A model generated the notes under the pieces. It saw only the letters and a program-made list of their open reading frames with translations, did no database searches and was not told the DNA's origin. This document shows positions 31,542-64,000 of a DNA stretch of 64,000 nucleotides, piece after piece. Source of the stretch: an uncultured virus (IMG/VR IMGVR_UViG_3300050821_000498) (taxonomy: Duplodnaviria > Heunggongvirae > Uroviricota > Caudoviricetes). The position numbers and the translations under genes are program-made. The stretch's first letter is position 1, and each line of letters opens with the position of its first letter. Location of the stretch: IMG/VR virus record IMGVR_UViG_3300050821_000498; one strand, given 5' to 3'.

Positions 31542-31560
31542 TTTATATTTCCTTATAATT

Positions 31561-31600: not shown

Positions 31601-31733
31601 TGTAAGCACACTTAATCTTTGTTAAATTATGCTTGACTTCCTTGTGTATACTGACTATTATGTAATCAGTTTTTCAAAACACACTTTGTTAAATATGTTT
31701 TGAAAAGAACCTACTAAGGTTCTTAATGTTCAA

Positions 31734-32183
31734 TTACAGAACATCACCATCAACTTCAAGCGAAACATTGGAGCCAGTAATAGTATCAACTGTACTAATC
31801 ATGATAGTTACGGACATGCACTGAGCCGAGAAGTAATTGTAGGTTCCATCTTGGTAAGTTACTTTATAGGCGTAGCTATTATCGCTGTCGCGAGCAGCCA
31901 ATAAGGCCGATTGACCTGCATCAGTAAATGCTTTAGCCATTTTAATAGCCATCGCACCATTGTCGTAGCTACCTTTACGTTTAAATGTAGTACGATTACC
32001 AAGAGGGTTATGTTTTACCAAATTAAACTTTTTACCAAATTCACCAAGATCGGTAATTTCAGCAATAGGTACATAAGTCAACGCACCAAATCCTGGCAAG
32101 TCATATGTTGCAGGGAAGATTGTACCAGATGCAATAGAGAGGGTTGTACCTGCACTGGTTTTTGCTAAACTAGTTCCAGCCAT
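31734..32183 (-). CDS. Major tail (tube) protein
   Basis: Position; I.DLGEFG..KRKGSYDNG..D.GQ..L motif. Confidence 0.8.
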   Translation of the reverse strand: MAGTSLAKTSAGTTLSIASGTIFPATYDLPGFGALTYVPIAEITDLGEFGKKFNLVKHNPLGNRTTFKRKGSYDNGAMAIKMAKAFTDAGQSALLAARDSDNSYAYKVTYQDGTYNYFSAQCMSVTIMISTVDTITGSNVSLEVDGDVL

Positions 32184-44983: not shown

Positions 44984-45010
44984 ATTCTTACTCTCCTTTA
45001 AAGCAAACAC

Positions 45011-45044
45011 AAAAAGGCTAGATAGCACTTAAGCTACTAGCCTT
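45011..45044 (-). terminator. Intrinsic terminator-like hairpin ~30 nt upstream of terL
   Basis: AAGGCTAG/CTAGCCTT stem plus T-rich tail. Confidence 0.6.
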
Positions 45045-45243
45045 CTATAAATTCGTGATATGCCGCCACAATCTTATCCATGCAAACATATCATGGAGGG
45101 ACAAAATCCCCTCCCTCACCACAATGCTGAACTAATATCAGCAATTCTTAAATTAAAGATAGCTTACCTATCAGCATTCCCGTAAACTAAGCCATACCTC
45201 ACACCCCAAGTAATGAGTGGTTCCTAGTCTCCCGAACAAAAAT

Positions 45244-45330
45244 TGGTATGCAAGGTGGGACTTGAACCCACAATCCTCTAAGGCGCAGGATTTTAAATCC
45301 TGAGTGTATCTCCAATTCCACCACTCGCAC
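45244..45330 (-). tRNA. tRNA-Leu, anticodon UAA
   Basis: Cloverleaf with CAGGA-TTTAAAA-TCCTG anticodon arm, long variable arm, GTTCAA T-loop, encoded CCA. Confidence 0.95.
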
Positions 45331-45787
45331 ATTTGTCTATATAAAAATGTTCTATTTCTATATTTTTAATTTTGTAATTCTCTATATTATGAGATGCTTT
45401 ACCTGCACAGCTCCTACTGCAAAATGGCCCACGCTTTCCGCGTTTCCTGTTCTGAACAGAATCCCTGATCGCTTCGCCACCAGATAATATAAATTTATTT
45501 CCACAGTGTTCACAATTTAATTGTATATCTTTCGATCTTTTTGCATCCAATCTAGAATGATCTTCCCTAGCTAATATTTGTAAATTACCTATACTGTTAT
45601 TAGTAAAATCTCTGTCAATATGGTCTACAGTCTCATTCAAGCCTAGATATCTTTCTAAATGCATTTCCATTAAGTATTTAGGATAAGAGACAGTCTTTCT
45701 AGTACCTTCTTTAGATTTCAAACAAACATGCATACGACCATCTTTTCTTAAATATGGGCCGTAGACTTTAAAATCTTCATATATCAT
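45293..45787 (-). CDS. HNH endonuclease with Zn-ribbon tail, overlapping tRNA-Leu
   Basis: VDHIDRDFTNN..NLQIL..H, CEHCG..FCSRSC. Confidence 0.85.
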   Translation of the reverse strand: MIYEDFKVYGPYLRKDGRMHVCLKSKEGTRKTVSYPKYLMEMHLERYLGLNETVDHIDRDFTNNSIGNLQILAREDHSRLDAKRSKDIQLNCEHCGNKFILSGGEAIRDSVQNRKRGKRGPFCSRSCAGKASHNIENYKIKNIEIEHFYIDKCASGGIGDTLRI

Positions 45788-45870
45788 TATATTTCTCTAA
45801 CAGTTGTAAAATCAATAATAGCCTCAGCTTATTCCTCTTCGTCATTGTGATGACGTAATTGCACTCTTAC

Positions 45871-46215
45871 TCAGACTTCAATCACATTATCAAAATCAAT
45901 AACAGGCTGTTGCTGACCTTGGATAGTAAGAGTCTTAGGCTGACCTAATCCGTTCATCTTTACTTGAGCCACAAGCCTATTAAATTCGTCCGTATTAATA
46001 TCTTTAGCTGTAGACCGAATCATATCTAACAAAAATTCAGCAGCCCTTTGAGATATTTTCTCATCTTTACTCTTAAGATTAACTTCTAGTACCTTAATGG
46101 CCTCTTGTTCATGTTTTTTTAGTAATCTAAGTAACTTATCTAGCTCTCCAGACTTGCGCATAAAGGAAGGGTTATCTTCTTTTACTATAACTTTTGTTCT
46201 TGTACTTCCCGACAT
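45871..46215 (-). CDS. Putative terminase small subunit
   Basis: First gene of the late arm, helical, upstream of terL. Confidence 0.5.
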   Translation of the reverse strand: MSGSTRTKVIVKEDNPSFMRKSGELDKLLRLLKKHEQEAIKVLEVNLKSKDEKISQRAAEFLLDMIRSTAKDINTDEFNRLVAQVKMNGLGQPKTLTIQGQQQPVIDFDNVIEV

Positions 46216-46235
46216 ACATACCTCCCTAAAATGTA

Positions 46236-46330
46236 ATTATATACTAAAAATACAATTTGTCAAGCTTTATTTTATAATAAATTATGAATTTTAAGAAATA
46301 GCTTGCTAATTACATTTTTTATGGTACAAT
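46236..46330. promoter_or_regulatory. Divergent promoter pair
   Basis: - strand TTGACA-N16-TATAAT (46236-46263); + strand TTGCTA-N16-TACAAT (46303-46330). Confidence 0.65.
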
Positions 46331-46787
46331 AAACTTAAATTATTAAAGAAAGGAGAAACCCTTATGAAATGGATCAAATATTATCTTATTGTTATGCAAT
46401 CAATAGTATCTAACAAAACAGTTGTAAATTTCTTTGGAAGTAGTTATATTATATCCGGTAATATTGTAAAACGAATTAAATAAGGGGGTATATGAAATTT
46501 AATGTGTATTATAGAAGTAAAACACAAAAAGGGTTGCATAAAATACAGGCCACTACGGATAGTCACATATTAGCTATAGCTGATGTAGAAGAATATATTT
46601 CTCAAAACAACATTGATGTATCTTCTCCTGTGTTAGTTGTTATTGAAGGAGGTGTTAATGGAGAAATTTAATATTGAAAAGTTTGTTGATGAGATAGAAC
46701 TTAAAGAAACTGCTGAAGATATGCACCTATCAGTGTACTATGACCCAGAAGCACATGACTATGACAATTATTTAGAAAGGAATAAAT

Positions 46788-47249
46788 ATGAAACAGACTA
46801 AGACTATCCTTACCCCTTCTCTTGCAACCTTCGGATTTGAATTTCAGGAAGCTGTCCAAGATGGGTGGGAGATTGAAGAAGATAAGTATGTAAACATGTT
46901 TGGGCCATACTATGAAGTGATTATGTGTAAGCGTGATTCCTCAGTAGCAGCCTTATTGTCAGATGTAGTTATACAGGAAGAAACAAAACAACTTACTCCA
47001 GCACAACAGCGTATGGCTAACGCTAGGGCATCTAAAGGTAAATAAATGCCAGATGATGAAACGCTTAAAAAGCGTCTAGCAAACGCACATATGAAAGCTA
47101 ACTACTATGAAAGGTTAGTAGAAGCCTTAGTTACAGGAAATGTTCCGAGACATCCTGATCTTAACCTAATTCAATTTGCGAGATATGGAAGGGTCTTGCA
47201 CGAATACTACCAATCAAAATATAGTTTTGATGAGCCTGATGCTGACTAG
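46788..47249 (+). CDS. Two small hypothetical genes (46788-47045, 47046-47249)
   Basis: Adjacent co-directional ORFs. Confidence 0.55.
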
Positions 47250-47278
47250 CATTGTAATATTGATATTAAAGAAATGAG

Positions 47279-48082
47279 GTGCTTTACATGAGTAACAACG
47301 CTCGTAGGAATAAGAAAAAAGAAGTATTGGAAACTAAACCTCAACCTAAGTCTAAATTTTTACAAACTGAAACAACTCCTGAAGGAGAGATTGTACAACC
47401 TAACCTCCCTAAATTTGAAGCTAAAACTAATTCTCAAAAGAAAGCCTTAGCTGCTCTACGTAGTGGTGCTAGTGTAGTGTTTATGATTGGTAGCGCTGGC
47501 AGTGGCAAATCTATGTTAGCTTCTTACGAAGCGGCATCATCTCTTAAGCAAAAGAAAGTAGATAAAATCTATCTAGCCCGTCCGAATGTGGCTACAGGTA
47601 AAACTATAGGAATGTTACCAGGGACTCTAGAAGAAAAGCTAGAACCATTCTTCGCACAAACAATAGAACATTTGCGTAAATTTATGGGTAGTGGATTTAC
47701 TAACTATTGTCTTCGCACTAAGACAATCGAAATGAAAGCTATTGAATATCTTCGTGGAACATCTTTTGAAAACTGTATTGTTATTCTCGAAGAATCTCAA
47801 AACTTTACAGCCGATGACCTTGAGATGGTGCTAACTCGTATAGGTAATAACTGTAGGCTAATCTTAACTGGAGATACAAGACAGAATGATCTTAAAGGGA
47901 ATAGCGGCTTGGCTAAGACACTTAAGCTCCTAGAGGATATGATAGAACTAGCTCCAGATTACTTAGATGATGAGGACATGAAAGAACTAGACGATAACGT
48001 AGCTATTATCGAATTTAAACCTGAGGATGTTGTAAGAAGCGGTATTACAAAGTCTTTTGTCAAAATTTATTACAACAACTAG
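47279..48082 (+). CDS. phoH: PhoH-family ATPase
   Basis: GSAGSGKS, RP, G.LPG.LEEK, YLRGTSF, EESQN, TRIG, GD..Q.D, VRS. Confidence 0.93.
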   Translation: MLYMSNNARRNKKKEVLETKPQPKSKFLQTETTPEGEIVQPNLPKFEAKTNSQKKALAALRSGASVVFMIGSAGSGKSMLASYEAASSLKQKKVDKIYLARPNVATGKTIGMLPGTLEEKLEPFFAQTIEHLRKFMGSGFTNYCLRTKTIEMKAIEYLRGTSFENCIVILEESQNFTADDLEMVLTRIGNNCRLILTGDTRQNDLKGNSGLAKTLKLLEDMIELAPDYLDDEDMKELDDNVAIIEFKPEDVVRSGITKSFVKIYYNN

Positions 48083-48093
48083 CAGGAGGGAAT

Positions 48094-48816
48094 ATGCAAC
48101 AAATTAAACGAGAGATACTGAATCAAGAAAAATATAAGAGCTACTACGGCTATAGTGAACCTAAAGAATATAATGTAGGCTTTATTCCTCATAAAAGTGG
48201 TAAGTATATTATTGAAATAGATAGTGAAATTGAAACTGTCTCACAATTTTCTACAGCAATACAATGTCTTAACGTTGCTAAAGAAGAAGACGAGATTGAA
48301 ATTCATTTGCAATGTAATGGCGGTAACGTTGATGCAGGAGGGGCTTTTATTCATGCTATTAGGAAGTGTCCAGCTAATATCCATATTATAGCAACAGGAG
48401 GGAACCACAGCTATGCTACGCACATCCTCCTAGAGGCAGATACTTTTGAATTATCCGAGAATTTTAATAGTCTGATTCACAACGGGGGTAGTGGAGCAAT
48501 TGGGAATATAAACGAATATCATGCTAAGTCGGATTTTGATAAGAAATTTATACGTGACGGATTTTTTAGCTGTTATGAAGGATTTCTCAGCAATGATGAG
48601 ATTGAAGGAGTGTTGCGTGGTGACAACATTTGGCTAGATGCAGAAGCTTGGGTGCAACGTCATGATGCCAGGAATGAATATTTCAAAGCCAAGGCTGAAG
48701 TATATATGAAGGCTAACATGCTTGTTAATGAGAATACCACTCCTGAACAGGAATTGATGTTTATAGAGGAAGTGGCTCCAACTCCTAAACGGAAGCCTAG
48801 AGCTATTAAAAAATAA
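48094..48816 (+). CDS. ClpP-like (S14) protease subunit
   Basis: IHLQCNGGNV, HSYAT (Ser), LIHN (His), IWLDA. Confidence 0.75.
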   Translation: MQQIKREILNQEKYKSYYGYSEPKEYNVGFIPHKSGKYIIEIDSEIETVSQFSTAIQCLNVAKEEDEIEIHLQCNGGNVDAGGAFIHAIRKCPANIHIIATGGNHSYATHILLEADTFELSENFNSLIHNGGSGAIGNINEYHAKSDFDKKFIRDGFFSCYEGFLSNDEIEGVLRGDNIWLDAEAWVQRHDARNEYFKAKAEVYMKANMLVNENTTPEQELMFIEEVAPTPKRKPRAIKK

Positions 48817-49147
48817 TGAATACTCTCTTGTTGACTTTATATATTATTCCATGTATTATTCTTCTTATCGTTGTTGCTAGTAGCTATAATTCTAGTAAGC
48901 TAAGAGCTAACACAGATAATTTATTCATGGGAACATTTATTATATTTGCTTTTATACCAATATTAAATTTATATATTGTAATGAGAGCCTTGGAAGAGAT
49001 TTATACAAGGAGAAATAGGAATGGCACGTAAACGTCAACAAGGGTTTGAATTGACAGACTCGCAAAAAGCTTGCGGGATAATCTGGTTTATTATATTTGT
49101 AATAATTGGTATATTTGGTGGACTACATTAAGCAACAACATTTAGAC

Positions 49148-49180
49148 AGCCTCCTCTATTAATTTAGCAGGAGGCTTTTT
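49148..49180 (+). terminator. Intrinsic terminator of the phoH operon
   Basis: AGCCTCCT/AGGAGGCT plus T run. Confidence 0.8.
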
Positions 49181-49611
49181 AATATGCCCTTCAGTATAAT
49201 TGTTAAATTTTATAAAAATATTATTTTACAATTAGGTATTTACCATCATTTTGTAATTTTGGTGCAGTAAATATCTAGTTTAGCTTATGGTTGCTAGGTA
49301 TGACCTATTTTGGTGCAAGGGCTAATTCGTGATTTAACGCCCCGCCGCCTAGCCCACCATACCCCTATAGCTTGCCCAAAATATCCCTACCCGGCGATCT
49401 ACAAGCGGCTGGTACAACTCGCCCACCCATCGTTAGAACGTCTTGTATCGCCTCTAATGGCTTCCTATAGCCTATTCATATGTGTATACTTGATGGTAGT
49501 AAGCCTATGCATGGCTAGCAATGGGATATCAATAGTGATGGACGACCGACCACGATGGTGTTATGCTAGGTGTACATCAATGACGATGGCACACAACAAG
49601 GAGAATGCAGC

Positions 49612-50295
49612 ATGAAAGCTATTGGCTATTGCAGGGTATCAACAAGGGAGCAAGGATTGAGCCGCAATGGGTTAGACGGTCAACGCATGGATATGGAACT
49701 GTTTGCAGTATCAAACGATATTGAGCTACTGGATATCGTGTATGAGGTTGCCAGTGCCAAACTAGACCACACTGACAGACCTGTCCTGGCATCAGTCTTG
49801 CAACGTGCTAAGCAACTGAAGTGTGCTGTCATCGTGTCTAAGCTAGACAGGTTCAGCCGCTCTGTACGCTACATCAGTACAATGATGGAAGTATTGAAGG
49901 CTGACCGTATAGGCTTCATCGTTGCCAGTATGGGGTTAGATGTCGATCCTCTTGTCATGCACATGTTCGCCTCTATAGCAGAGAATGAAAGGCGTATGAT
50001 AGGTGTACGTACTAAGGTTGCATTAGCCGCAGTCAAAGCAAAGGGAAAGCAACTAGGTGCATCAGGTGACAGACTATCGGCAGTGCAGGCAAATGGGCAT
50101 GCATCGCAACGTCAGCAAGCCATAGCATTCGCTGAGAAAATTAGAATTCCAATTCAGAAAATGCGAGCCAGGGGAATGACGCAAGCACAGATTGCAGACG
50201 AACTAAACGAATACAACACCCCTACAAGCCGTGGTGGCAAGTGGTCAGCCACTCAGGTATCACGTACGGAAAGACTGCTGAAAATGGCCTTGTAA
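49612..50295 (+). CDS. Serine recombinase (resolvase/invertase catalytic domain plus short recombinase-type DNA-binding domain)
   Basis: GYCRVST, DRP.L, KLDRFSR, ERRMIGVRTK, IADELN..RGGKW; AAGGAG before ATG 49612. Confidence 0.92.
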   Translation: MKAIGYCRVSTREQGLSRNGLDGQRMDMELFAVSNDIELLDIVYEVASAKLDHTDRPVLASVLQRAKQLKCAVIVSKLDRFSRSVRYISTMMEVLKADRIGFIVASMGLDVDPLVMHMFASIAENERRMIGVRTKVALAAVKAKGKQLGASGDRLSAVQANGHASQRQQAIAFAEKIRIPIQKMRARGMTQAQIADELNEYNTPTSRGGKWSATQVSRTERLLKMAL

Positions 50296-50319
50296 GCCTT
50301 CTGTATAGAACTATCCTTT

Positions 50320-50345
50320 AAGGGCGCTATATGCGCCTTTTATTT
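50320..50345 (+). terminator. Terminator after the recombinase
   Basis: GGCGC-TATAT-GCGCC then TTTTATTT. Confidence 0.7.
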
Positions 50346-50777
50346 CGTCCAATGGTTTTATATTATCAATTGGTTAACTTATGACGCCCATACATGTATT
50401 GTTACTGTATTACAACATCTGGAGGATTAGGCAAGAATTCGCTAGCGCCTATGCACATCTTTTGGCCTATGCAGATTTCCAAAGATTTTTAGGCAAGCTT
50501 TACGGATGAAAAGTGGATTTAACCATTTCATACCGAAAAGTGTTTAAAATTAACATTATACAATATTGTAAAGTAAACTCATTAGTATACTTTTAATGCA
50601 ATTCAGTTGCAATTCTATAATTATGCAATCAAATACTTGCGTATGTCATTTTAACAACTTACTTTAAGGGAATTAGCAGTCTCGGATAGCCCGTCATAGC
50701 AAAATCAATTTGTAGCCATTACAAGGCCATTTATAGACGTTATTTTGAGAGTTTGATAGCAACCCAGCCAGAAAGCA

Positions 50778-50798
50778 GAAAAGGGCTGAAAAGCCCTT
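50778..50798 (-). terminator. Terminator ending leftward early transcription
   Basis: AAGGGCT/AGCCCTT stem followed by a T-rich tail on the - strand. Confidence 0.55.
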
Positions 50799-50821
50799 AG
50801 AATTGATGTTAGGAATGTAAT

Positions 50822-51328
50822 TTAGTTAATTCTTTCAGGGTTGACACATATAATTTTATCCCCTGAAAATTCAATTGTCGATTCATCCTCAAAGATATAA
50901 ACAACTGTCTGCCAGCCCACTACCCAATCGATACATTTGACTACAGCTTGCAAGCGGCTTGTAATTGTGTCTGCAATTGTTTTCATGATATTTCCTTGTT
51001 TAAGTGTTTGCCTACCTGATGTCTCAAGTATAGGTAACAATAACCTAGCTGTCAAGACTTTTATGCAGATAATTTAAACTTATTGCTTAGTGATAGTAAA
51101 AACCACACTACAGCCATTAGCTTGATTAGTCCACGTCCTGCTACCCTTCACATGACAGAAGCCTAAATCGTCTTTAGTAGACTCGCTGGCAGTAAGCTTG
51201 TAACTAAAACAATGAGCATCAGCCAATACCCTAGCAGCGCCTTCAATAGCACGTATAGCGGCATTCCATGTGCTTTTAGTGTCTGTCCAGCCTATTGTGG
51301 ACGTTATTAAGAATTGTTCTCGTTTCAT
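50822..51328 (-). CDS. Two small early-type hypothetical genes (50822-~50987, 51080-51328)
   Basis: AAGGA RBSs; promoter TTGACA-N17-TATACT at 51027-51055. Confidence 0.55.
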
Positions 51329-51480
51329 GATTTATTCCTTATTCTTTGCTTGTATCTTAAATTCCCTATCAGCGCATTTATAACACATTCTAACCCCCTT
51401 CATGCTCCACCAAACATAAGAGATAGGAGAATTGTTAAAACGCCTTTTATTGCACTGCAAACATAATTGTATTTTCATAA

Positions 51481-51867
51481 TTAAAACTTCCAAACATCAA
51501 TTCCCCACTTAGCAGCTATTTCACGCTTTTTAGCTTCTGCCAGCACTGTAAATTCATGATGATAATCTGAAAAGGGTTTGCCTGGACGAATACCAAGTTT
51601 ATGCGCTTCTTTGATCATATTCTGAGATTTGCAATATTCCATGCTTGATTCGTACTCACATTTAGCACGATAAACAGCTAATTTCAAAGCATCATCAATT
51701 TCTTTCTTAATTTCTTTAGAAGTCTTTCCAGTGTGACGAGTAGCACACACAGAGCCGTAATGCAGGATATCCCCATCAACATCTACGATGACGGTTGACT
51801 TCAGATTAGTTTTACCACAACAATCGCATGTATTCACACTGTCGTCATAACCAAGTATTTTATGCAT
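51481..51867 (-). CDS. Zn-finger-like early protein
   Basis: CDCCG...YGSVC. Confidence 0.6.
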   Translation of the reverse strand: MHKILGYDDSVNTCDCCGKTNLKSTVIVDVDGDILHYGSVCATRHTGKTSKEIKKEIDDALKLAVYRAKCEYESSMEYCKSQNMIKEAHKLGIRPGKPFSDYHHEFTVLAEAKKREIAAKWGIDVWKF

Positions 51868-52139
51868 GATATTCTCTTTTAGTTAATGTCTAACTCCGAT
51901 AAACAAATAATAGCTTACTAAATTCAATACCTATGAGAGGTTATAACAGCTAATGCAGGTAATCCGAATGCAACAGCTAGAACACCTATAATCATCACAG
52001 CAATGATTAATTTATCTTTAAATGATTGCATAATTATCTCCGGTTAGTAATTACATCTTATATTAATAAATCCGATAATACAAGCTCTATCTTCAATATA
52101 AATCAGCTATGGCGTCCCAGACGCGGACATACAACATAA

Positions 52140-52870
52140 TTATACTACATTTGTGTATATTTGTAGTATAAACACAACAACAGTAACAATTCCCGTCATA
52201 AAACGTCGGTTATATACTGTAAGCGGCTATCTATGATTGTTTGCACAAATACAACAAACAATAGTTCCAATTAGTTAACCAATGAAACATTGCTAATAAT
52301 TCATTCTAGCACAAACAAATAAGCAGCGCAAGCTGCTATTGTGAAGACATTGCACAAATAATTAGCTTCGCTAAAGGTAACGTGCAAGCTACTCACAAAC
52401 AATGTAATTCTCTTATTATTAAGCACGGTACAAACGCATGGCGATAGCCAAGACATTGTACACAAACAATAATACCGTACGGTTTAGTAGTCCACAAAGG
52501 TAGCGCCTTCGGCTTGTAGCACACAAACAAGGATAAGCGAGTAAGGCGAGCACTAAAGATATTTGTTTCTTTGTATACAAGATTTATATTCTTCTAATAA
52601 GAGGAGAGCGAAGCGAACAATTATTAATTATAGCTGATGTGTATAAATAAGCTTAAGCCGTGCTCTAATAGCCGTTGTGAAAGACACTAGCGAAGCTAAG
52701 CAACTTCACATTTCTTATTAGTAGCGTAACAGGAGTTATTTAGTTGAGAATTATTCTTATTTAAGATTATCTCAGTTAAGAGCAATCGCTACGCTCATAA
52801 AGTCAAAAACAACAGCAGGGGTTTTTCTTCGATTAATAGACTATATGTAAGGGTTAGCTCGCTGCGCTCG
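52140..52870. repeat. Non-coding tract with repeated CACAAA(C/T)AA motifs, mini-hairpins and GAGCGnAGCGA repeats
   Basis: Motif copies at 52310, 52353, 52394, 52461, 52522; no ORF of 60 aa or more. Confidence 0.7.
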
Positions 52871-52931
52871 CTTTCTAAGATTGCTATACCGTAATTAAGT
52901 TAATCGTTATACTCATATTTATATTTTTAAG

Positions 52932-53654
52932 TTGTGTGCAATATATTGTTGCTTTACAAGTTATTTATGGTATAATATACTTTTAAGGGATATTATGATA
53001 GATAAAGTTAAAGCAATACAACTAAGACAAGAAGGTAACACTTATGAAGCAATCGCTAACATTTTAAACTGTTCAGTAGCTTGGTGCAAGAAAAACTTAA
53101 CAGGCATTGAAAAGAACTCTATAAAGCCTGTTGAAACTAAGCCTAAGCGCTTTATAAGAACTTGTATTACAAATGAAGATGGAACCATTACAGCCGCTAG
53201 GCTAAATATAGCTACAGGTGAAATTAAGCCATTTCGGTATGATAAACCAGAATTAATAATTATACCGAAAGGTGTAATGAACACAACTAAAGACCCTTTT
53301 TGGATGTCAACGCCTATAGCTGGCGAAAGAGAATCTATTACTGAAAGGCAACTCAGAATTAGTCAGGAAAATAAAAGTTGCTATAAGTTAACTAATTATG
53401 TCTCTTTGGAAGATGCCAAAGAAGATTTTACTTTCTTAGATAACCTACTGGTCGGTGTAAGTAATTTAGGAAGCTCTAATGAGGTTAGCCACAATTTGAT
53501 GTTCGGTATGCTTAGGGATTTATCCTATATCAATTTTGAAAGTATAAAAACTTATACAGGATTTAGTGACACGTTCTGCCATAAGCTTGCAACTCAATTA
53601 AGGGTACTTGACAATGCTTTTAGTTCAGCTATCACGAAAAATAATATACTATAA
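52932..53654 (+). CDS. HTH DNA-binding protein (start probably at MIDKVK near 52996)
   Basis: AIQLRQEGNTYEAIANILNCSVAW HTH; promoter TTGCTT-N16-TATAAT at 52949-52976. Confidence 0.65.
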   Translation: MCAIYCCFTSYLWYNILLRDIMIDKVKAIQLRQEGNTYEAIANILNCSVAWCKKNLTGIEKNSIKPVETKPKRFIRTCITNEDGTITAARLNIATGEIKPFRYDKPELIIIPKGVMNTTKDPFWMSTPIAGERESITERQLRISQENKSCYKLTNYVSLEDAKEDFTFLDNLLVGVSNLGSSNEVSHNLMFGMLRDLSYINFESIKTYTGFSDTFCHKLATQLRVLDNAFSSAITKNNIL

Positions 53655-53800
53655 TCTCTTTATATAGGCGGTTAGGAATTGATTTCTTGGAGATTGGCTT
53701 TAGGTAACACTCTCCTTGTTAGCGAACACTAACATTTTACAAATACATGGTATATTTTATGCTTAGCATTACTAGGCTATTTTTGTTTGAAAGGTAATAA

Positions 53801-54280
53801 ATGTTGTCACAGTCTATGTACGATCAAGAACAATTTCAAGATTTACATTTCTGGTTCAGAAGATGTGGGTATGTAGTTCCCAGGGAAGGTAACGGGGAGT
53901 ATTACGTATATATAGCTACTGATGAAGCTAATACTATTATTTACATAGGTAGTGGTAAGGGTGAGAGATATAAACATGTTACGTCAGGAATTTCTCACAA
54001 TAAAATGTTAAATAAACTTTATTTTAGCGGAGAAACTCTTTCTGTGAATGCTTACAGGGTAGATTTAACTAAAAATGAGGCTATGGAGTTAGAAAGACAA
54101 CTTACAGAGTTTACAAATCCAGCCGCAAATCTTAAAAATAAAACCGTTCAAGGTGCAAGCCGTTACAATAAGTCTCCAATGATGTTGTTCATAGAATTTG
54201 GCGAAACAGTTTATAATAGGTACAAAAACAAGGATGCCCCACAACTACCTGTAAATATGGATTGGACACTTAAACACTGA
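53801..54280 (+). CDS. GIY-YIG nuclease-family protein
   Basis: YYVY..IIYIGSG..R..H, EA.ELE, PAAN. Confidence 0.75.
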   Translation: MLSQSMYDQEQFQDLHFWFRRCGYVVPREGNGEYYVYIATDEANTIIYIGSGKGERYKHVTSGISHNKMLNKLYFSGETLSVNAYRVDLTKNEAMELERQLTEFTNPAANLKNKTVQGASRYNKSPMMLFIEFGETVYNRYKNKDAPQLPVNMDWTLKH

Positions 54281-54483
54281 GTGCTAAGCTTTCAATATAG
54301 CGTAACGCTGCATAGCTCTTACCATTTCCCATAAGAGAATCAATCACTTCTATCTGCATGTAATTCCTTTATTGTGTACAAATAGAGTATTTTAACATGT
54401 AAATGATGATTGTCAAGTTATAATGCAACGTATTTTATACATAACTAATCATATATGTGCAAAATAGACTGCATTATTAGGTT

Positions 54484-55385
54484 TTACTTGTTTGCACAAC
54501 TTAGATAATATTTTATACTCCTGCGCATAGCAATACGACGTTTCAGAGAACAATTGTAATCTACCCTAGTCATAAATTTGAAATGATGACCGCTATAATA
54601 CCCCTCCCGCTTATTCCTTGACAAATTACATTTATTCAATTGTCGCCCTTTCCGAGTGATGCCTATTCCATAGGCTTTCATTTCTTGGTAAAGCTCGTCT
54701 TTAGTCTTGTCATTTATTATTAGGATAGCCCTCTGTAGGAATACGTTATTCATGCCAATCCCCTCTCCCATCCCTCATAAATCCATTCTCAATCAAGAAT
54801 GCTTGCAATGTGTCGTCATCGTACATGTTATTCAATGTACTAAACAAATCATCACATAGGGCCTCATGGTAACAATCTTGTATGTAAAAGCTGGCGAGTA
54901 TTTGTGCGATGTGCTTATTCATCATCAATCACCATATATTGAATATTAGTTCGTTCATAAGGTTTTGCATAGAATCCCCAGCCATACACGTTAGGATATC
55001 TTATAGATTGTTGGCCTTCAACTTCACAAATTGCCAATGTTTTAGTTATTCTTGTAATAACATCAATTCTAAATGGATTACTTTTTATGCCATAACTAAC
55101 AGCAATCCTATCCCCTATCTCCAGTTTATACCCTTCAGGTTTGTATTTCATGATATCACCACCTCTGTACACAATAAATGCCCAAACATCTCCATAGCAT
55201 GCTTCTTTATCAATTACTGTATCTACAATTGTGCGCTTAATAATCCTACTTTCCCACTTGCCATTATAAATGTTAGAGGATAATTCTGCTATAGCTTCGT
55301 CAAGTGTTTCCAAAGTGATGTAATCTCTAAAATCAGGATATCCGTAACGGCTCTGTATTTGTATAATGTAGTATGTTTTGTTCAT
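54484..55385 (-). CDS. Three small early-type hypothetical genes (54484-54771, 54746-54928, 54915-55385)
   Basis: Overlapping co-directional ORFs. Confidence 0.55.
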
Positions 55386-55603
55386 ACAAGCGTCGTCCTT
55401 CTATTTTCAGATTTAGGAAAGAATATTAAAGAGAATACAGGGAAATCTATTTCCTCGTCAATTGTAAATCTCTCTGTGTTGATAATAATAGCGCCAGATG
55501 TTATCCAGCGCCTAATTTCAGAATTACTAGCCAATGTCCCCGGCTTCTCTGTAGAATAGGGAATAGCTGGCTTAAGCTGTAAAATGTAATCTAAGGCTTT
55601 CAT
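55382..55603 (-). CDS. Stand-alone S4-like RNA-binding domain protein
   Basis: SNSEIRRWITSGAIIIN matches the S4 signature S.SEARR.I..G.V.IN. Confidence 0.6.
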   Translation of the reverse strand: MKALDYILQLKPAIPYSTEKPGTLASNSEIRRWITSGAIIINTERFTIDEEIDFPVFSLIFFPKSENRRTTLV

Positions 55604-55809
55604 ACAGTTCTAGTATAGCTGTGAATCTTCCCGTTAAGATGGTTAAGCTCAGCCATACGCTTTTCAGCATCTTCAGGACTCAATCCAAGCTGAATCATAT
55701 ATTGTTTACGTTCAGCCCAAGTGTCTCTAAATTCCTGCATAGCGGCACATAAATCTAATATTTCTTTATCCGTGAACTCAAGACGTTTTAATATAGGCAT
55801 TTCCCCCCC

Positions 55810-56175
55810 TCAATTCAGCACAATCCAGCCACGCCCTTGCAAGCAGCGCCTTGTTATAGCTTGCTTATCCCCTATAGCAGCATTTCCTTGCTCAGCAGCC
55901 CCACCTAATGCCCCTATAGCTGCAAACCTTCCCCTATTCCCTCCGCCATTAGCTGCATTCAATAACAAGCCTCCAATAGCGCCAGCAATGGCCCCGAATG
56001 CTGCCTTATCCGCTATTCCTGCCACTTGCATGGAATATTGCATACATTCTGATAAATCATCGGCATAATTTCTCCCGGCTGGCATGATGGAAGTGTCTAC
56101 GATTGGCCGATATTGTGGAGTAGCGCAGCCTGACAGGCTTAGAATGATGCAAGAAGCTAGAATTAATTTGTTCAT
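55810..56175 (-). CDS. Glycine-zipper lipoprotein
   Basis: Lipobox LSGC; GAIAGAIGG/GALGGAA zipper; C..GRG tail. Confidence 0.8.
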   Translation of the reverse strand: MNKLILASCIILSLSGCATPQYRPIVDTSIMPAGRNYADDLSECMQYSMQVAGIADKAAFGAIAGAIGGLLLNAANGGGNRGRFAAIGALGGAAEQGNAAIGDKQAITRRCLQGRGWIVLN

Positions 56176-56186
56176 TTTGTTATCCC

Positions 56187-59100
56187 TTAGTCTAATTTCA
56201 TCATAAAGTCAATAGATAGATTCTCTGTTGTGTTATATCGAATGATGCTCCGCATCCTATCTGATGATTCTATTTGAGACAAGATAGCGTAATCCTCAAG
56301 CCCTCCTAAATTCTCTAACTCCTGTGTGAAAGTTTCTTTTTTCCTGATTAATGGTTGTTTTTCGTCAACATAGCTTACAGTAATTAGATATTTAGACATA
56401 GTTCCTCCTTGTTAATATTGTCAATGCTCCGAAGCCTCAATACAGAATATTATAAATCTTTCCTCTGTACAATCCTCTAGTTGCTTATATGTAACAGATT
56501 GCACATAGTACAACAGTTCATCATTTATTGCCTGAAACACATTATGTTGCTTTGATTCAAAATTTGAGACTATTTCCAGATGGTATTTATGTGCTATTAG
56601 CTTAGCTTGCTCTATGTTCATTATATACTTTCAGAAGGGCAAAGACATAATGTTATGACATGTAAGCAAATTTGTCTAGTATTTCACATTCTTGAAAGTT
56701 TCAGTGTTTGAGTTATATTCAAATGTGGCATCACCCGACGTAATTGTTATGCTATCTGCGTCATCATTAGGATAATTTCTAAAATGATTAGCTATACAAA
56801 TAGCTTGGTCAAGTGTAATGTCAAAAGCCATTATGTGCCCATTACGTTTAAGTGTGTAAGTTTTCATGATTATTTCTCGAAATGTTTTAAATTAACTAGG
56901 CATTTTCCATCAGATGTTACAACAGCACCTATGAAAAGATTTTGATCAGGGCGCATTAATGTTCTGGTCACATATTTTTTATCTTCCAATGTAAATTTCA
57001 ACATTTTAAAGTTGGCTTGGTAAACTTCAAAACTATCCGCTTGAACATAGACAATTTTTGTTTGTTTTTGTTTAGGCGCTACCTTTTTAATGCATGTGTA
57101 ACCATAAGCAAGACCATTGTAAAATTGCGGCATTGTGACATCTGCTCCACAACATGCACATTGAATAACTTTCATGATAACCGCCCTGTTAAGAATTAAT
57201 ATTGCCCTGCCATGAACACAGAATAGCACATACAGAATTTATGTCAAGCTGTTTTATAAAATAAATTTAAAATGTTTAGACAAAATAAAAGGAGCTATAC
57301 AAATTAATGTATGCTCCTAATCTTTAAAACCTATTTAGAACGCAGTAAATAGGAATACTAATACACAGAAATATAAGTATACAATAACCAATCATATACT
57401 TACTCATTAATTGCTTTCAAACTAGCTAGCCGCTCCGCTACAGCAGCCTTGTCATATTCCTTGCCATCAATTGTAATTGTTTCTGGCTTAGGCTGTATTT
57501 CCTTAACAATAACTTCTGTTGTGAATGTATGTTCTGTATGCGAATGTCCTTTATAATAATCATCTGGTACACAATAGATATTACCATCTGCATATGTAGA
57601 GATATTTGGAAAGTTGTCACTATAGTTTTCAATGCTTCGTCCTGTACTCCGCCACTGATAACCCAGACTGAACAAATACTTCTGCAAAGCTTCGCTATCT
57701 TGAGCGTTATTTACACGAAATTTCATAGCTTTGAACATTCTAGTTTCCTTCATTCAATTTACGTTTGTCATTTGTACGCTGCCAAGTTTTCCCTTTATAT
57801 TGCTCTGTAATGGATTTGCTAGGCTTTGTCTTGGTCGTCTTTTCAAAACTACTATTTGATTGGCTCATTTTATGCCTTTCAAACTAACAGCATACCGGCT
57901 ACCCGTAAGCACATTAACAGATTGCCCCTTATCTTGCGTAGTGGCTGGCAACCCTTGCATCTTACGGTTAGCTGCGAATGTACGTGCATCTTGACGTTTT
58001 GTGAAGAAGATTTTCATAATTTAGCTTTCAATTTTGTTTGTAGGAGTTACAGGAATTGGGTAGGGGCCAAGTTTTCGCCTAATTTCTTCGTTCGACATAG
58101 CAGCCTCACATCCAAATAACGTAAGTGTTAATAAATTCTGCCATCAGGTATAGCGTCAAGATAGCAAAGAGAATGAGTAAGATTGTTGGGAAGTGTTTGT
58201 ACATGTTAGCCCCTTAAAAGACTTCGCATTGCATCGGGTACACTGCGCGGACACTATAACGATATCCGCCATATTCGTTGTCAAGCTTGTCTACACGGCG
58301 ATTAGCACGACTACGGCTAGAATAGTCTTTGCCAATTTGCAAGCCTGTTTTAGTGTCTATGATTTTGTAGATGATGTTCATGATATATTCTCTATTTGTC
58401 GTTAAGGCTTTCCGTCAGCCTATAAATACATAATAGCATAGTTAGGAATTAATGCAAGCTAATTTTAAATTATTTTATATTCCGCTCCAAATATATCCCA
58501 TACGTTCAACATATTCAATTGCTATATCTCTTGAGGAACTTGCACAAATCATTTTAAGCCCCTTTACAGCCGCTCAGCCGTTGTCGTGTATTCATTAACA
58601 TATGTATAGCCAAGCTCCTCCGCTATGGCCATACAATCGCTTTTAAAGCCTTCTGTGATGAGTTTACAGTCTCTTACGTCGATTGCTTGGTATAGGATGC
58701 TATTAGGTTTTCTTTGTAGGATGTAGAACATGTTACTCATTATCCTCTTCAATAAATTGACTAACAAAACTGTCCACTTGCCCCTTGAGACATTTATATG
58801 CCCCTTCTATTTCGCTTAAACGCTTCTGATAATACGTCAAAGCTTCAACAAAAGCAGCTTCGGATGTCTTTGCACGCTTTGAAATATTCATTCCCCTTGT
58901 TTTGTCATACAGCCAATAGCCGTCATTACACAGGGAAATGGTAAGCGTTTCGCTTAGTTTTGTGGATGAAATAGCTTTTTGCATGATCACAAATCCTTCT
59001 TACGTTGAACATCAACAATAGTGTAAACACAATGAAGTGTTTCACGTAAGAAAATTGTTGTATTGTAACTTTTCATTCCGTTGCTGTATGGCGCTGGAAG

Positions 59101-59286
59101 ATCAGCATAACCATTCTCACCAAGCCACTCTACAGCACATTGCAAGCCATGATCACCATAGCCATATTCAAACTTGATTGCTTTTTCTTCTGTGCCGTCA
59201 TCAAATGTGACAGTAGCAGAAAAATATGTATTGCCGTATGTAGCTTGGAACCAACGTTTTACAAGAATGTGTACAGGCTTTTTCAT
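56187..59286 (-). CDS. Cluster of small early-type hypothetical genes (e.g. 56187-56399, 56421-56621, 56676-56867, 56870-~57175, 57400-57753, 58733-58990, 58987-59286)
   Basis: Short ORFs with RBSs, several behind their own sigma70-like promoters (57220-57247, 58430-58457, 59321-59348). Confidence 0.55.
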
Positions 59287-59370
59287 AATGTTTTCTTTGT
59301 GTTGTTGAACGAATGATTCTATTTTACAGCTATTACAGATAATGTCAAGACTATTTTAAATTTATTTATT

Positions 59371-59447
59371 TGGCATGTCTAACAGGACTCGAACCTGTGA
59401 CCCTTAGCTTAGAAGGCTAATGCTCTATCCACCTGAGCTATAGACAT
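59371..59447 (-). tRNA. tRNA-Arg, anticodon UCU
   Basis: ATGTCTA/TAGACAT acceptor, TTAGC-CTTCTAA-GCTAA anticodon arm, GTTCGA T-loop, CCA. Confidence 0.96.
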
Positions 59448-59807
59448 ATTATTTTAAAACAATCCCAAAAAACTTTCAAACAAATTTGCAATGTTGTCAA
59501 GATTAGGCAAGACAACAAGCAATGTTACAAGAATTATAACAATTTCTTGCCGGGCTTCTAGTGATGTGTATTTTAGCATATTAGATTGTTTTGACTTCTT
59601 GAATTAAGTTAATATTATATCCGCGCGCTTTAATATGTGCCAGGGCTACCTTAGTGATATTTTCTGTACCTGCTATGGCTGCGAATTGCTCCGCTACCTT
59701 GCAAGCTGGCATGATTGTATCGAAACCGTGAACACGTTTCAATGTTACGTTAATTGTTTGCATTATTCCTCCGGGCAAATAGAAATAAAATCATCCTTGA
59801 AATGTTG

Positions 59808-60725
59808 TTAATAATTCTCGGCTTCAATGCGAGTGATGAAAAAATGGATTCCACCGGAACATTCTATTGTCCAATCTTCACCCCATTTATCACAATGTAC
59901 AGTTTCACCAACTACATATGTAGTTTTACCATCATGTTGACTAATTCCCTCAGCAACAATATTTCCTTGAATGTCGCAGACAGATAATACTTTAGCATAC
60001 TCAGCACGGCATTTTCTCCCCATTGCATGACAACGTTTCGCAGAGGAGGGAATCAAAAGTTTTACAATAATATTGTCTCTACATTTTTTAAAACCTATAA
60101 CGTCACCCTCATCAGGTAAGATACGTGTTTGTGCGATTAAAAGCGTTGCATTGATAGCACCGGACAAATTAGTACCGGACAAATCAGCACCGTACAAATT
60201 AGCACCGTACAAATTAGTACCGGACAAATCAGCACCGTACAAATTAGCACCGTACAAATTAGTACCGGACAAATCAGCACCGTACAAATTAGTACGGGAC
60301 AAATCAGCACCGTACAAATTAGTACGGGACAAATTAGCACCGGACAAATTAGTACCGGACAAATCAGCACCGTACAAATTAGTACGGGACAAATTAGCAC
60401 CGGACAAATTAGTACCGGACAAATCAGCACCGGACAAATTAGCACCGTACAAATTAGTACCGGACAAATCAGCACCGTACAAATTAGCACCGTACAAATT
60501 AGTACGGGACAAATCAGCACCGTACAAATTAGTACGGGACAAATTAGCACCGGACAAATTAGTACCGGACAAATCAGCACCGGACAAATTAGCACCGGAC
60601 AAATTAGCACCGGCTGCTATAGCTGCAATTAATGTAAGAGCTACAGTATTTTTGCTAACATTGTGAGAGAAAATTACACTAGCATTAAAACGATGTTTGA
60701 TTTCGATCAGCATTTTATTATCCAA
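59808..60725 (-). CDS. Pentapeptide-repeat protein with DUF5758-like C-terminal domain
   Basis: ~30 x (S/Y)(G/R)(A/T)(N/D)L; tail GFKK..IVKL.IP..RKCRA..ECSGGIHFF. Confidence 0.9.
   Translation of the reverse strand: MDNKMLIEIKHRFNASVIFSHNVSKNTVALTLIAAIAAGANLSGANLSGADLSGTNLSGANLSRTNLYGADLSRTNLYGANLYGADLSGTNLYGANLSGADLSGTNLSGANLSRTNLYGADLSGTNLSGANLSRTNLYGADLSRTNLYGADLSGTNLYGANLYGADLSGTNLYGANLYGADLSGTNLSGAINATLLIAQTRILPDEGDVIGFKKCRDNIIVKLLIPSSAKRCHAMGRKCRAEYAKVLSVCDIQGNIVAEGISQHDGKTTYVVGETVHCDKWGEDWTIECSGGIHFFITRIEAENY
60155..60613. repeat. 15-bp tandem repeat, ~30 units
   Basis: AAAT(T/C)AG(C/T)AC(C/G)G(G/T)AC. Confidence 0.97.
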
Positions 60726-60932
60726 TAAGAATGTTATAAATAATTATGGACAAACAAGAAAGCTTTCAGATTAGCCCGTAACGTGAATTAAAAATCGGCA
60801 TCCATGATTTATAACCCTATTCGCTTTCTTGTTCAACGCTTGCCGTAGTAAACGCCTTCCATGTACACATATTATCACATCCAAAAGATAATACAAGCTT
60901 TATTTCTACTAAGTGTAGAAATATTTTATACA

Positions 60933-61307
60933 TCAAGTTTTCAATGTCGCTTGCATAATCTCTTGCAACTCCTTCGCAATTTTCGTCTGTTCTGCCATCA
61001 ACTCTTTGACTCGCTTGATTGTATCCTTGCCAGCCTTTGCTTTAGGCTTGATAGGTGTTACACTATTACGTGGCAGACGTTGGCGCAATACAATCTCCTT
61101 GCCTCCAAATGTCTCCTTGTAATCTGTTACCATACTTTCAATTTGCTTAGCTGTAGGAGTCTTGGTTGATTGGTAGTATTCCAGGCTTACCATAACTGGC
61201 TCTGAGCCTTTGCCATTCCATACCATCAGTTTATTACCCTTGAAGCTATCAGACAAGAAGATTGCAGGCTTACCCATCAGATCAGTGCGGCAAATAATGT
61301 TTTCCAT
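60933..61307 (-). CDS. Hypothetical early protein
   Basis: AAGGGG RBS; basic coiled C-terminus. Confidence 0.6.
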   Translation of the reverse strand: MENIICRTDLMGKPAIFLSDSFKGNKLMVWNGKGSEPVMVSLEYYQSTKTPTAKQIESMVTDYKETFGGKEIVLRQRLPRNSVTPIKPKAKAGKDTIKRVKELMAEQTKIAKELQEIMQATLKT

Positions 61308-61627
61308 GATTGTCCCCCTTAAAAAGAATTATAAATAAGTGTTTTAAAATAAATCATTTTGTGTTAGAGAAAATTAGGCTTGTCGCCTGATTCGTAATGT
61401 AGAACAAGTCATTAGCATAGTCAAGGAAAAATTAAAAGGGCAAACGTAAAACAATGTAACAATTAATTTGTTATATAGGGAATTGAAATAAAGGTATTGT
61501 GCATATACAACAAATTTAAAATAAATTTGACAGATGATTAAATATGTCTTATAGTGGATTCATTAGCGCTGCTTCAGCGGTTAATTAAGTAGAGGTATTG
61601 TCTATCGCTTATGCTCAAAACAATAAA

Positions 61628-61647
61628 TAAAAGCCGCTTTCGCGGCT
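61628..61647 (-). terminator. Intrinsic terminator
   Basis: AGCCGC-GAAA-GCGGCT then TTTATTT on the - strand. Confidence 0.75.
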
Positions 61648-61652
61648 CTATA

Positions 61653-62476
61653 TTAGTATTGCTTTCTTAAGAATTTATCCGTATCATATCCAAAAATAGT
61701 TAATGGTTTTCCGGTAGCATAGTTTATTCCATTGTTGTATTTAGGATGATTAGGGTCACCGTCATCAAATATACCGGCTTTATGATGAGTACAAATTAAC
61801 ATATTTGATTCACGCATAGCTTGCTGGGCATACTTGTTTGGCAGATCGTAGGTTTTCATTTAACATACCCCTTCAATTGTTCATTAGTCAAACTGCGAGC
61901 AATGGTAGTGTCACACATCAACTCAGTTAAACTACCCTGGCCCATGAAAGAATGACTAACTAGATATTGCAAGTCTACAACTTCGCCAGCGTTATTTCGT
62001 GTAGTGTAAATGTCCAGGATAATATAATCTGTCAACTCTTTAGCCTTTGCATACCGCTTGCGTGAGAATGTCAGGCCGATTGGGAAACGTGGTGTATTCA
62101 TTTTGAAATCCTTGGTTTATTTACAGATAGTTTAAATTCTATGTGCGGCTCATCTTTACTGAATACATCTAGCCATTGTTTAGCAGTCTCAGAACAGCAT
62201 TCCCGTTCTATGTGCCAGCGCCAGCCATATGCACTATCAAAACGTTTTGACCATAGTTTAATCATTTTTGAAAGCTCCTCAATTACGCGGTAGGATTGTA
62301 TGAAGTTTTCCAGATGCATCATATATAGCGGTGAAATTATATTTGTCTTGAATAATCTTGCCCCATTTAACGGCATCTACAATACTATAGAATCCACCAG
62401 CGCAAGGATTTAGAGTAGTGTTGATATCCTGAATTATGCCAGATGTACGGTGTACAAAGAATTGAAAATTATGCAT
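61653..62476 (-). CDS. Four small early-type hypothetical genes
   Basis: Overlapping ORFs 61653-61859, 61856-62101, 62098-~62265, 62279-62476. Confidence 0.55.
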
Positions 62477-62559
62477 CTTGATTCCCCTATGTAAGAGCCT
62501 CCATTATTACACTTAATACCCATATTTGCAAGCCTATCTTGTAAAAATATATTTTCTTA

Positions 62560-62990
62560 ATCTTATTGCTCACCATCCGGCATTATGCTAGTCTGAAAGA
62601 TGGAAGCAATCCGCTTTGGCATTGCTGCATCTGTTCGCCTGAGACATTCTCAGAGCGGATAAGGAGACTTATTGCTTGAACATTTATTCTATATACCTAT
62701 CAGTAATAAAGGAGTGTAAATTAAATACATAATTATATGTAGGATGCCCCACATCAAATTTCTATTCATAATCGGATAGAGAGTAGGTATTCTATTGTCA
62801 GACACATATATGTTAGCACTCCCTTACAGACAAATGGATACATTTCTATGCAAATGCGTATAGTGTATCTGTGTAGCAACATTCTGAGAGGGGATGAGAA
62901 ATTGACCTCTTGGCATTCCAAGCCCCTCCCTAGTGATTCAACAGGAATTGAAAAGTGATTGGGGAATTTTCATAAATATGTTACAGCTTT
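62560..62990 (+). ncRNA. Candidate large structured non-coding RNA (unassigned family)
   Basis: ORF-free gap with many nested stems whose G-U pairs form on the + strand; see findings. Confidence 0.55.
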
Positions 62991-63006
62991 CTTTGGGACT
63001 TTTAGT

Positions 63007-63747
63007 TTAGAATTTAATCCGCAATCCTCCGTTAACAAAATCTATCTGTTTTGCATTAGGATATTTTAAAGCAGCCTCACCAATAATTTTAGAGTGACCA
63101 AATTTTAACTCACCTTCTACTTTCAGACGCATGGCATATTCTTCATCAGATTCATAATCTTGCCAACAAACATCAAATTCTCCAACTGTGTCAGTATCAA
63201 AATTCATATACGCTTGAGGATACTTATCATAAAGCATCTGTAATGTTTCTAGTGCCTCTTTAAGAGTCATATTCGATATATCGTGATAGCCTTCAGACCA
63301 TTTAGTAATAATTTTCTTTGTCATTTCTTTTCTCCTTTAGGGTAGCATTCTGCGAACACTACAAAATCATTACCATTGAATTGTTTTCTATAATTATCTC
63401 TAGCACTAAGACAAGAATTCCTATCATCAAAGTATATAGTAGTAGTTGTCATATGACTAGAGTGCCGTACATATATTGTTAGAATAAGAATATATGGCAT
63501 ACGTTTACGTATGATACCAGTTTGGCACAACAAACGAAGGCTTAGACGGCTGCAACATCATGCAGAAGCCTTTTAGGTCAGCTTTATAAGTTTCATAGTC
63601 ATCTGAATATTCTACATACCTCTGAAGCTTTCCACATAAATCAGCCCAAGTACAAATACCTTTAATTAGTATAATACTACCATCCCTACGAGTAAGCATC
63701 TTGTTTGATCTGTAAGCCTCACAAACAAACTCATATTTATCTTGCAT
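63007..63747 (-). CDS. Three small hypothetical genes (63007-63324, 63321-63533, 63505-63747)
   Basis: Overlapping co-directional ORFs. Confidence 0.55.
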
Positions 63748-64000
63748 ATTTATTTCCTTCCCTTTAAAAATCGGATGACTTGAAAATTATGGATAAAGTC
63801 ATCTGAAAAACCAAAGTATATAAAATCCCTAAAATATCTCCTACAAGTATTGTACTAAAGTATCTTTTCTCTCGTAGCGTTTCATTATTTCAATAGCCTC
63901 TTTAGCATATTCTGCACTTATACACCTTATATTCATAACACTCCAGAAAAAGAAGAACCTACGTTCCCATATATAATAGACATTATTCCTTTTAGTGATT

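Follow-up and report, generated by a model that had tools for sequence, protein, structure and literature searches.

A non-coding, moderately structured gap in the genome of an uncultured tailed phage as a plausible source of an orphan RNA

A 530-bp gap in a block of small genes of an uncultured tailed phage was found to be real, non-coding and moderately structured, with a lean towards the plus strand, and an orphan RNA encoded there appears plausible but unproven. The reading that we tentatively prefer, while holding it at somewhat less than an even chance, is that ~62560-62990 would form a folded non-coding plus-strand RNA, the stable 3' portion of a transcript reading through in antisense. 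Its supports are a fold above the level of shuffled sequence, 84 confident base pairs, domains specific to the plus strand and a strong plus-strand promoter 1 kb upstream.

The gap and its genomic setting

The window, that is the whole 64,000-nt stretch of DNA analysed, makes up most of a tailed phage genome of ~80.8 kb. Its capsid protein shares 48% identity with the one from Limnohabitans phage DC31 and 43% with those of Curvibacter phage P26059A and of KPP10-type Pseudomonas phages. The nearest other virus record by capsid stands at 72%, one partial 100% match being set aside, and record G001 is the same phage, with 50001-64000 100% identical. The gap sits within a block of small minus-strand hypothetical genes, and the features that define its setting are:

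62477-63006, no strand assigned, ORF-free gap of 530 bp between two small minus-strand genes (ORF and codon scan)
61653-62476, minus strand, four small hypothetical genes (gene calls), to which a plus-strand read-through RNA would be antisense
63007-63324, minus strand, 105-aa orphan gene, with no minus-strand terminator found after it
59371-59447, minus strand, tRNA-Arg(TCT), the tRNA nearest to the gap, 3.1 kb away (ARAGORN)
45244-45330, minus strand, tRNA-Leu(TAA) (ARAGORN)

The initial annotation of this DNA had described a 530-bp ORF-free gap, and this was borne out. The gap contains no start-codon ORF of at least 58 aa, every minus-strand ORF inside 62560-62990 scores below zero when judged by the phage's own codon usage, and its stop-free frames, searched against PHROGs and Pfam (nine and seven frames, respectively), gave nothing better than E 0.086. 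Gaps of at least 300 nt are common: the window contains four, and the count rises to 49 once 39 stretches from related phages are included. The 105-aa flanking gene had no relatives in a search of 5.8 billion proteins, and against 1.84 billion representatives it gave eight matches, namely itself and seven partial ones in long proteins, with no full-length relative. For the 124-aa gene at 60933 the protein search returned the gene itself alone, and relatives of 23-38% were present in three fetched genomes. A 305-aa protein encoded nearby (59808-60725, minus strand) carries a long pentapeptide repeat with a 15-bp period, which inflates the folding score of its tile.

Folding of the gap against shuffles, tiles and other gaps

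Over 62526-62990, the interval proposed in the initial annotation, the plus strand has a minimum free energy (MFE) of -124.3 kcal/mol and z-scores of -3.19 and -3.53 in two runs, in each of which none of 100 shuffles did as well, while the minus strand gave -1.45 and -1.69. The whole gap scored -2.05 on the plus and -1.59 on the minus strand, and 62563-62987 scored -3.25 and -2.51. The folding z of the gap varies with the boundaries chosen; the minus-strand global z was weaker than that of the plus strand at all three choices, and the plus strand folded better than its shuffles at every boundary tried (z -2.05 to -3.53).

As a control, 137 non-overlapping 465-nt tiles of the window were scored by a regression z. 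The target's value of -3.66 was matched by three of the 137 tiles on either strand, seven reached -3.19, and just two had a lower two-strand z sum. The tile distribution has a mean of -0.38 and an sd of 1.37, which places -3.7 about 2.4 sd out, and the difference of ~1.3 z units between the strands is reached by 25% of ordinary tiles. Two other gaps in the same genome gave z -2.1 and -2.3, close to the -2.05 of the whole gap. The comparison was extended to 25 gaps of at least 465 nt from the phage and its relatives (a subset of the 49, target included), where six of the 24 others fold better, at z -3.9 to -7.9 against -3.2 for the target, one of them containing a group I intron. Three group I introns of related phages scored -4.9, -1.4 and -4.7 by the same method, a range that spans the target, so that a genuine RNA can give such a z.

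Pairs with a probability above 0.85 numbered 84 on the plus strand and 29 on the minus strand, against 43 +/- 20 in shuffles, of which 2 of 60 were as high. A local-structure scan found three adjacent domains at z -3.6 to -4.2 each. Local structures cover 0.91 and 0.47 of the plus strand at z -2 and -2.5, and 0.98, 0.91 and 0.19 of the minus strand at z -2, -2.5 and -3; at these three thresholds plus-strand coverage ranks 9, 69 and 25 among 376 tile-strands. Folded as DNA, the two strands gave z -3.0 and -2.4, and helices of at least six Watson-Crick pairs numbered 44, against 44 +/- 6 in shuffles. Taken together, the tile, gap, DNA-fold and strand-difference controls describe a region, picked by eye, that is rich in self-complementarity (roughly the top 2-7%) and has only a moderate plus-strand lean.

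Predicted helices and domains

A five-domain architecture with two pseudoknots had been drawn for the plus strand in the initial annotation. Its seven numbered helix pairs all pair fully, its other motifs were located in the region, and the non-Watson-Crick pairs are indeed G-U on the plus strand. Six of its 13 helices were well supported, with probabilities of 0.74-0.97 (CTGAGA/TCTCAG, GGAGTG/CACTCC, TTTCTATTC/GGATAGAGA, GGATACATT/AGTGTATCT, TGTAGCA/TGTTACA and TCCCTAGT/ATTGGGGA), whereas the remaining seven, both domain 1 helices among them, had 0.23 at most. A fold forced to keep the proposed helices reached -98.4 against an MFE of -116.9, a cost of 18.5 kcal/mol, and ATAAG (starting at 62659) overlaps AGCGGAT (ending at 62660). 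Since nearest-neighbour folding is blind to pseudoknots and tertiary contacts, the five-domain model is unsupported rather than excluded. The pseudoknots themselves are at chance level: unpaired bases could form six such helices, and 4.6 +/- 2.1 would be expected. The predicted elements are:

62598-62664, plus strand, two adjacent hairpins, AGATG/CATCT with AGCAAT/ATTGCT (62621), and TGTTCGC-CTGAGA/TCTCAG-GCGGATA (probabilities 0.7-0.96)
62669-62709, plus strand, TTATTGCT/AGTAATAA helix (folding)
62711-62822, plus strand, domain closed by GGAGTG/CACTCC and containing the TTTCTATTC/GGATAGAGA hairpin (probabilities 0.97 and 0.96)
62834-62872, plus strand, long hairpin GGATACATT/AGTGTATCT with a TATGC/GCGTA cap (probability 0.95-0.97)
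62872-62985, plus strand, 3' multibranch domain closed by TGTAGCA/TGTTACA, with TCCCTAGT/ATTGGGGA, then a T-rich tail (folding)

With domain boundaries picked after seeing the fold, the hairpins at 62598-62664, which supersede the earlier domain 1/2 pairing, scored z -3.7 on the plus and -3.3 on the minus strand, the domain at 62711-62825 scored -3.3 and -1.1, and the hairpin domain at 62830-62872 scored -4.3 and -1.5; two of the three strong domains are plus specific. The G-U-rich hairpins at 62759 and 62834 turn mismatched on the minus strand. Domain 5 (62872-62990), taken alone, was not above its shuffles (z -1.2 on the plus strand). Pairing inside the GGAGTG/CACTCC domain is uncertain, and a second, identical TTATTGCT at 62563 competes for the AGTAATAA partner. 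The support for an RNA in the gap, its confidently paired bases included, is single-sequence thermodynamics for an uncultured phage with no close relative.

Other candidate motifs were set aside. An alternative 11-bp helix (62609-62619/62650-62660) occurred in 0 of 1000 sampled structures. At 62884-62905, pattern scans with a T-box-like double T-loop motif returned only the region itself or chance matches, and words resembling the P, Q, R and S elements of group I introns found no support in Rfam.

Promoters, terminators and contigs of an RNA run

Promoters were scored with a weight matrix built on 17 promoter-like sites picked by hand in the same phage, a rough matrix with leave-one-out training scores of -5.1 to 24.9. 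The sites of interest are:

62526-62553, plus strand, TTGCAA-16-TATATT, promoter of the initial annotation (motif present; matrix score -0.9 to -4.7)
62503-62531, minus strand, predicted sigma-70-type promoter TTGCAA-17-AATAAT with a TG motif and an AT-rich upstream (score 7.9, rank 87)
61527-61555, plus strand, promoter-like site TTGACA-17-TATAGT facing against the minus-strand genes (11 of 12 matches; leave-one-out 17.6)
61630-61649, minus strand, predicted intrinsic terminator of the 62476-61653 operon (hairpin prediction)

The proposal of a dedicated plus-strand promoter was not supported, as it scored -0.9 to -4.7 at best, whereas a minus-strand promoter with this TTGCAA as its -35 box scored +7.9. 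This palindromic word is common to both readings, and the proposed plus-strand -10 box falls in the AT-rich upstream of the minus-strand promoter, which by its motifs is likely to serve the operon starting at 62476. The best plus-strand candidate at the gap itself is weak (62478, score 6.6), and 61527 is the sole strong plus-strand promoter upstream of the gap, 1 kb away. About 70 nt after the 61527 start, the hairpin of the operon terminator has an interrupted T tail on the plus strand, TCTATATT, with 5 T in 8, and may thus stop plus-strand transcription only partly. Two products of the 61527 promoter are conceivable, alone or side by side: an RNA of ~90 nt and a 1.4-kb read-through transcript that would end in the folded gap. 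On the minus strand, no terminator was found in the gap, so that the upstream minus-strand operon probably reads into it. The claim of a structured plus-strand RNA stands as regards non-coding sequence with above-chance self-complementarity, somewhat stronger on the plus strand, but its specific architecture, pseudoknots and dedicated promoter found no support.

The segment 61527-61655 (plus strand) is of interest in itself, having a promoter against the local genes and a hairpin after ~70-90 nt, with no credible ORF, and may encode a short antisense RNA. It folds no better than shuffles (z -0.8), and 11 related records held no convincing match to it.

RNA run X1 contributed 50 contigs on 44001-64000, 40 of them at least 99% alike. 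Mean depth over the gap was 1.5 and 0.8 in two bins, against 0-19 elsewhere, and no high-depth contig over the gap was seen in these assembled contigs, which reveal neither level nor strand and may derive from DNA. Depth was highest at 49426-50516, around a serine recombinase/invertase gene (49570-50295), where one contig carries three base differences and another lacks 94 bases upstream of the gene, possibly reflecting another organism's related element.

Searches for homologues

Rfam 15, which holds GOLLD and ROOL models, returned two tRNAs only for the whole window at the gathering score, and in E-value mode over 62300-63200 it gave four matches at E 5-9, none of them GOLLD or ROOL; no known family was matched to the region. 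ARAGORN found two tRNAs and no tmRNA. The earlier statement that the region matches no tmRNA, RNase P, intron or ribozyme holds in these scans, with the Rfam models of RNase P, group II introns, small self-cleaving ribozymes and riboswitches unmatched, as was that of the group I intron core (Intron_gpI), of which the same gathering-score search recovered three in related phages. In two related phages, group I introns lie within the terminase gene or next to it (L042, 10917-11162 and 12386-12645; L071, 15939-16149), and none was detected in the window with Rfam.

Blastn against GenBank phages, plasmids and E. coli genomes gave short chance-level words at most. The best E was 0.066 in a DNA search of 19 of the 24 capsid-related virus records, and 38 stretches fetched from such records gave nothing significant with either nhmmer or blastn. 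Three single-sequence covariance models, which are insensitive, returned the region itself and one match at E 0.79 in a coding region from 42 sources (854 kb), and 0 of 20 whole records, no positive record being included. Exact-pattern scans of viral contigs (1, 1, 6, 72 and 1 matches) found the region itself, five unrelated and 71 unrelated sequences, and none of seven matches from a pattern scan of genome contigs was homologous. With stop-free gap frames as queries, 1 of 53 in viral contigs and 1 of 332 in metagenome contigs was found, in both cases the gap itself, and 0 of 600 in genome contigs among the matches listed. A 15-nt word common to record G010 and 62522-62536 (E 0.12) is possibly due to chance, and positional homology with gaps in the related phages L058 (record G010) or L045 (record G006) was discarded, as neither flanking proteins nor DNA align.

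The collection of homologues thus yielded the identical phage or chance words only. Because the neighbouring genes are also without close relatives, the absence of RNA homologues says nothing on conservation; the phage lineage is simply unsampled. No description of this phage or RNA was found in the accessible literature.

Other structured elements in the phage and its relatives

The window's strongest fold (z -7.1) is at 31541-31740 on the minus strand, a 200-nt gap in the tail block after a 149-aa gene at 31734-32183. It has five near-perfect hairpins, includes a terminator-like one, overlaps a plus-facing promoter-like site at 31633, and has no Rfam match. In L058, 3662-4080 (minus strand) is a 417-nt multi-domain element directly behind TTGACA-17-TACAAT, with z -4.1 sense and -2.0 antisense; this orphan RNA candidate is better anchored than the one in the present gap, does not align to it, and had no match in Rfam or among GenBank phages. 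In L045, a TTGACA promoter is followed by a long rod-like hairpin at 3395-3620 (plus strand), which is antisense to the genes around it and precedes AT-rich repeats; the 610-nt gap has z -6.9, and the rod matched neither Rfam nor GenBank phages. The 1064-bp gap at 51868-52931 of the window carries repeated ACAAACAA and GCGAAGC/CGCTCGC-type words and may be origin-like; the 240-aa protein encoded downstream of it has a weak helix-turn-helix match.

Possible roles of the gap

In the reading that we prefer, host sigma-70 RNA polymerase would start at the strong plus-strand promoter at 61527 and partially read through the weakly T-tailed hairpin at 61632-61647. The product would be a ~1.4 kb RNA, antisense to four small early genes and converging on their promoter at 62531, whose folded 3' 430 nt would resist 3'-exonucleases, persist as a stable RNA, and damp the antisense operon or act in trans. 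Every step past the ability of the sequence to fold is one that we infer. Counting against it are the want of a dedicated plus-strand promoter, the hairpin between the upstream promoter and the gap, the whole-gap z of -2.05, a minus strand covered by local structure as fully as the plus strand at z -2 and more fully at -2.5, helix and pseudoknot numbers at chance, the folding of both strands as DNA, and the lack of a homologue. The best duplex of the candidate with any of 127 predicted gene starts scored -33.5; shuffles gave -34.0 +/- 2.2, and 11 of 20 did as well. Complementarity to the phage tRNAs amounted to a single 9-nt stretch. A resemblance to leader-targeting antisense RNAs of the PLE IIR type was not seen, complementarity to the phage's own gene leaders being no better than in shuffles.

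The gap could instead give no discrete RNA: upstream of the minus-strand promoter at 62531 it would serve as a spacer or regulate at the DNA level (or, in variants, consist of decayed or newly acquired DNA, or of protein-binding inverted repeats), and its fold would be an upper-tail value picked by eye. We regard this as possible, if on balance improbable. Gaps of such size are routine (the 49 of at least 300 nt, four in the window), a z of -3.7 lies ~2.4 sd out in the tile distribution, and the chance-level helix count, the folding of DNA on both strands and the dependence of z on boundaries all agree with a spacer; however, the promoter leaves ~450 bp unaccounted for, each of three neighbouring local domains has a z of -3.6 to -4.2, and the plus-strand ensemble is better defined than those of 58 of 60 shuffles by confident-pair count. 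It is unlikely that the minus strand is the functional one. The operon ending at 63007 would in that case extend into the gap as a long 3' UTR or an intercistronic segment; the hairpins there would govern how the transcript is processed and how stable it is, and may yield a processed ncRNA, as reported for PAK_P3 ncRNA1 and ncRNA2. Minus-strand transcription is probable in a gap with no minus-strand terminator, local structures at z -2.5 or below cover 91% of the region, and the capsid is 43% identical to those of KPP10/PAK_P-type phages, where the PAK_P3 ncRNAs appear 3'-UTR-derived. Yet the global z of this strand is weaker at three boundary choices, it has 29 confident pairs against 84, and the G-U-rich hairpins at 62759 and 62834 are mismatched on it.

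That the gap holds uncalled small minus-strand genes is very improbable. The candidates are:

62824-62916, minus strand, candidate 30-aa ORF behind AGGGAGG
62766-62807, minus strand, candidate 13-aa ORF behind AAGGGAG
62689-62769, minus strand, candidate 26-aa hydrophobic ORF overlapping the previous stop by ATGA

In their favour, the sequence shows Shine-Dalgarno-like words and a coupled arrangement, and codon use is also weak or negative in 4 of 19 accepted small genes nearby, which score -1.3 or below. These words are, however, the complements of helix strands of the plus-strand fold, the codon scores are -0.37, -0.65 and -0.14 per codon, no family was matched, and the three tested frames are absent as exact sequence from a 15-billion protein set in which seven of seven neighbour ORFs are present. 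Finally, we think it rather unlikely that the region would represent an undescribed class of ~430-nt multi-domain phage RNA acting in trans, by catalysis or as a decoy or scaffold, with distant relatives (L058, L045) that may carry sequence-unrelated, promoter-driven folded RNAs in their early regions. If true, orphan structured RNAs would be a recurring feature of this group of 75-90 kb phages.

Comparison with known phage RNAs

Long non-coding RNAs from ORF-less gaps of lytic phages are a kind already known from ICP1, PAK_P3, GOLLD and ROOL. The initial annotation had likened the candidate to the GOLLD/ROOL class. Like these, it is a large phage-borne candidate with multiple junctions and no apparent protein partner; ROOL averages 581 nt and many GOLLD exceed 800 nt (PMC5737381, PMC12286853). 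Features of the two families also include multistem junctions and pseudoknots backed by covariation, very high abundance and an RNA-only nanocage. In contrast, the candidate is shorter, with a gap of 530 bp and a folded part of ~430 nt, it has no Rfam match to these families even at E 10, and its pseudoknots are at chance level. Its nearest tRNA is 3.1 kb off on the other strand, a tRNA neighbourhood being frequent in the families, not obligatory. The likeness thus goes no further than being long and phage-borne, since family model match and size fail and the tRNA neighbourhood is absent.

PAK_P3 belongs to a distantly related phage group and has two abundant ncRNAs, ncRNA1 and ncRNA2, without their own start site and apparently 3'-UTR-derived (10.1101/2023.10.13.562163; first described in PMC4933390), and antisense RNAs with their own start sites (10.1101/2023.10.13.562163). 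Intergenic RNAs without a dedicated promoter and antisense transcripts are the points of likeness, whereas ncRNA1 and ncRNA2 are ~210 and 120 nt long and sense-strand-derived, and have no sequence similarity to the candidate. Phage ICP1 makes a ~800-nt transcript from an ORF-less gap, its most abundant transcript (PMC7567579). Blastn of the candidate against GenBank phages gave no match. The two are alike in that each belongs to a long ORF-free gap in the genome of a lytic tailed phage, is not linked to any cluster of tRNA genes and lacks a known function; they differ in that the ICP1 RNA was observed and is ~800 nt long, whereas the present candidate is ~430 nt and known from sequence alone. 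Large structured phage RNAs such as GOLLD, ROOL and that of ICP1 are abundant, with function still unknown, and a new class would add a test case.
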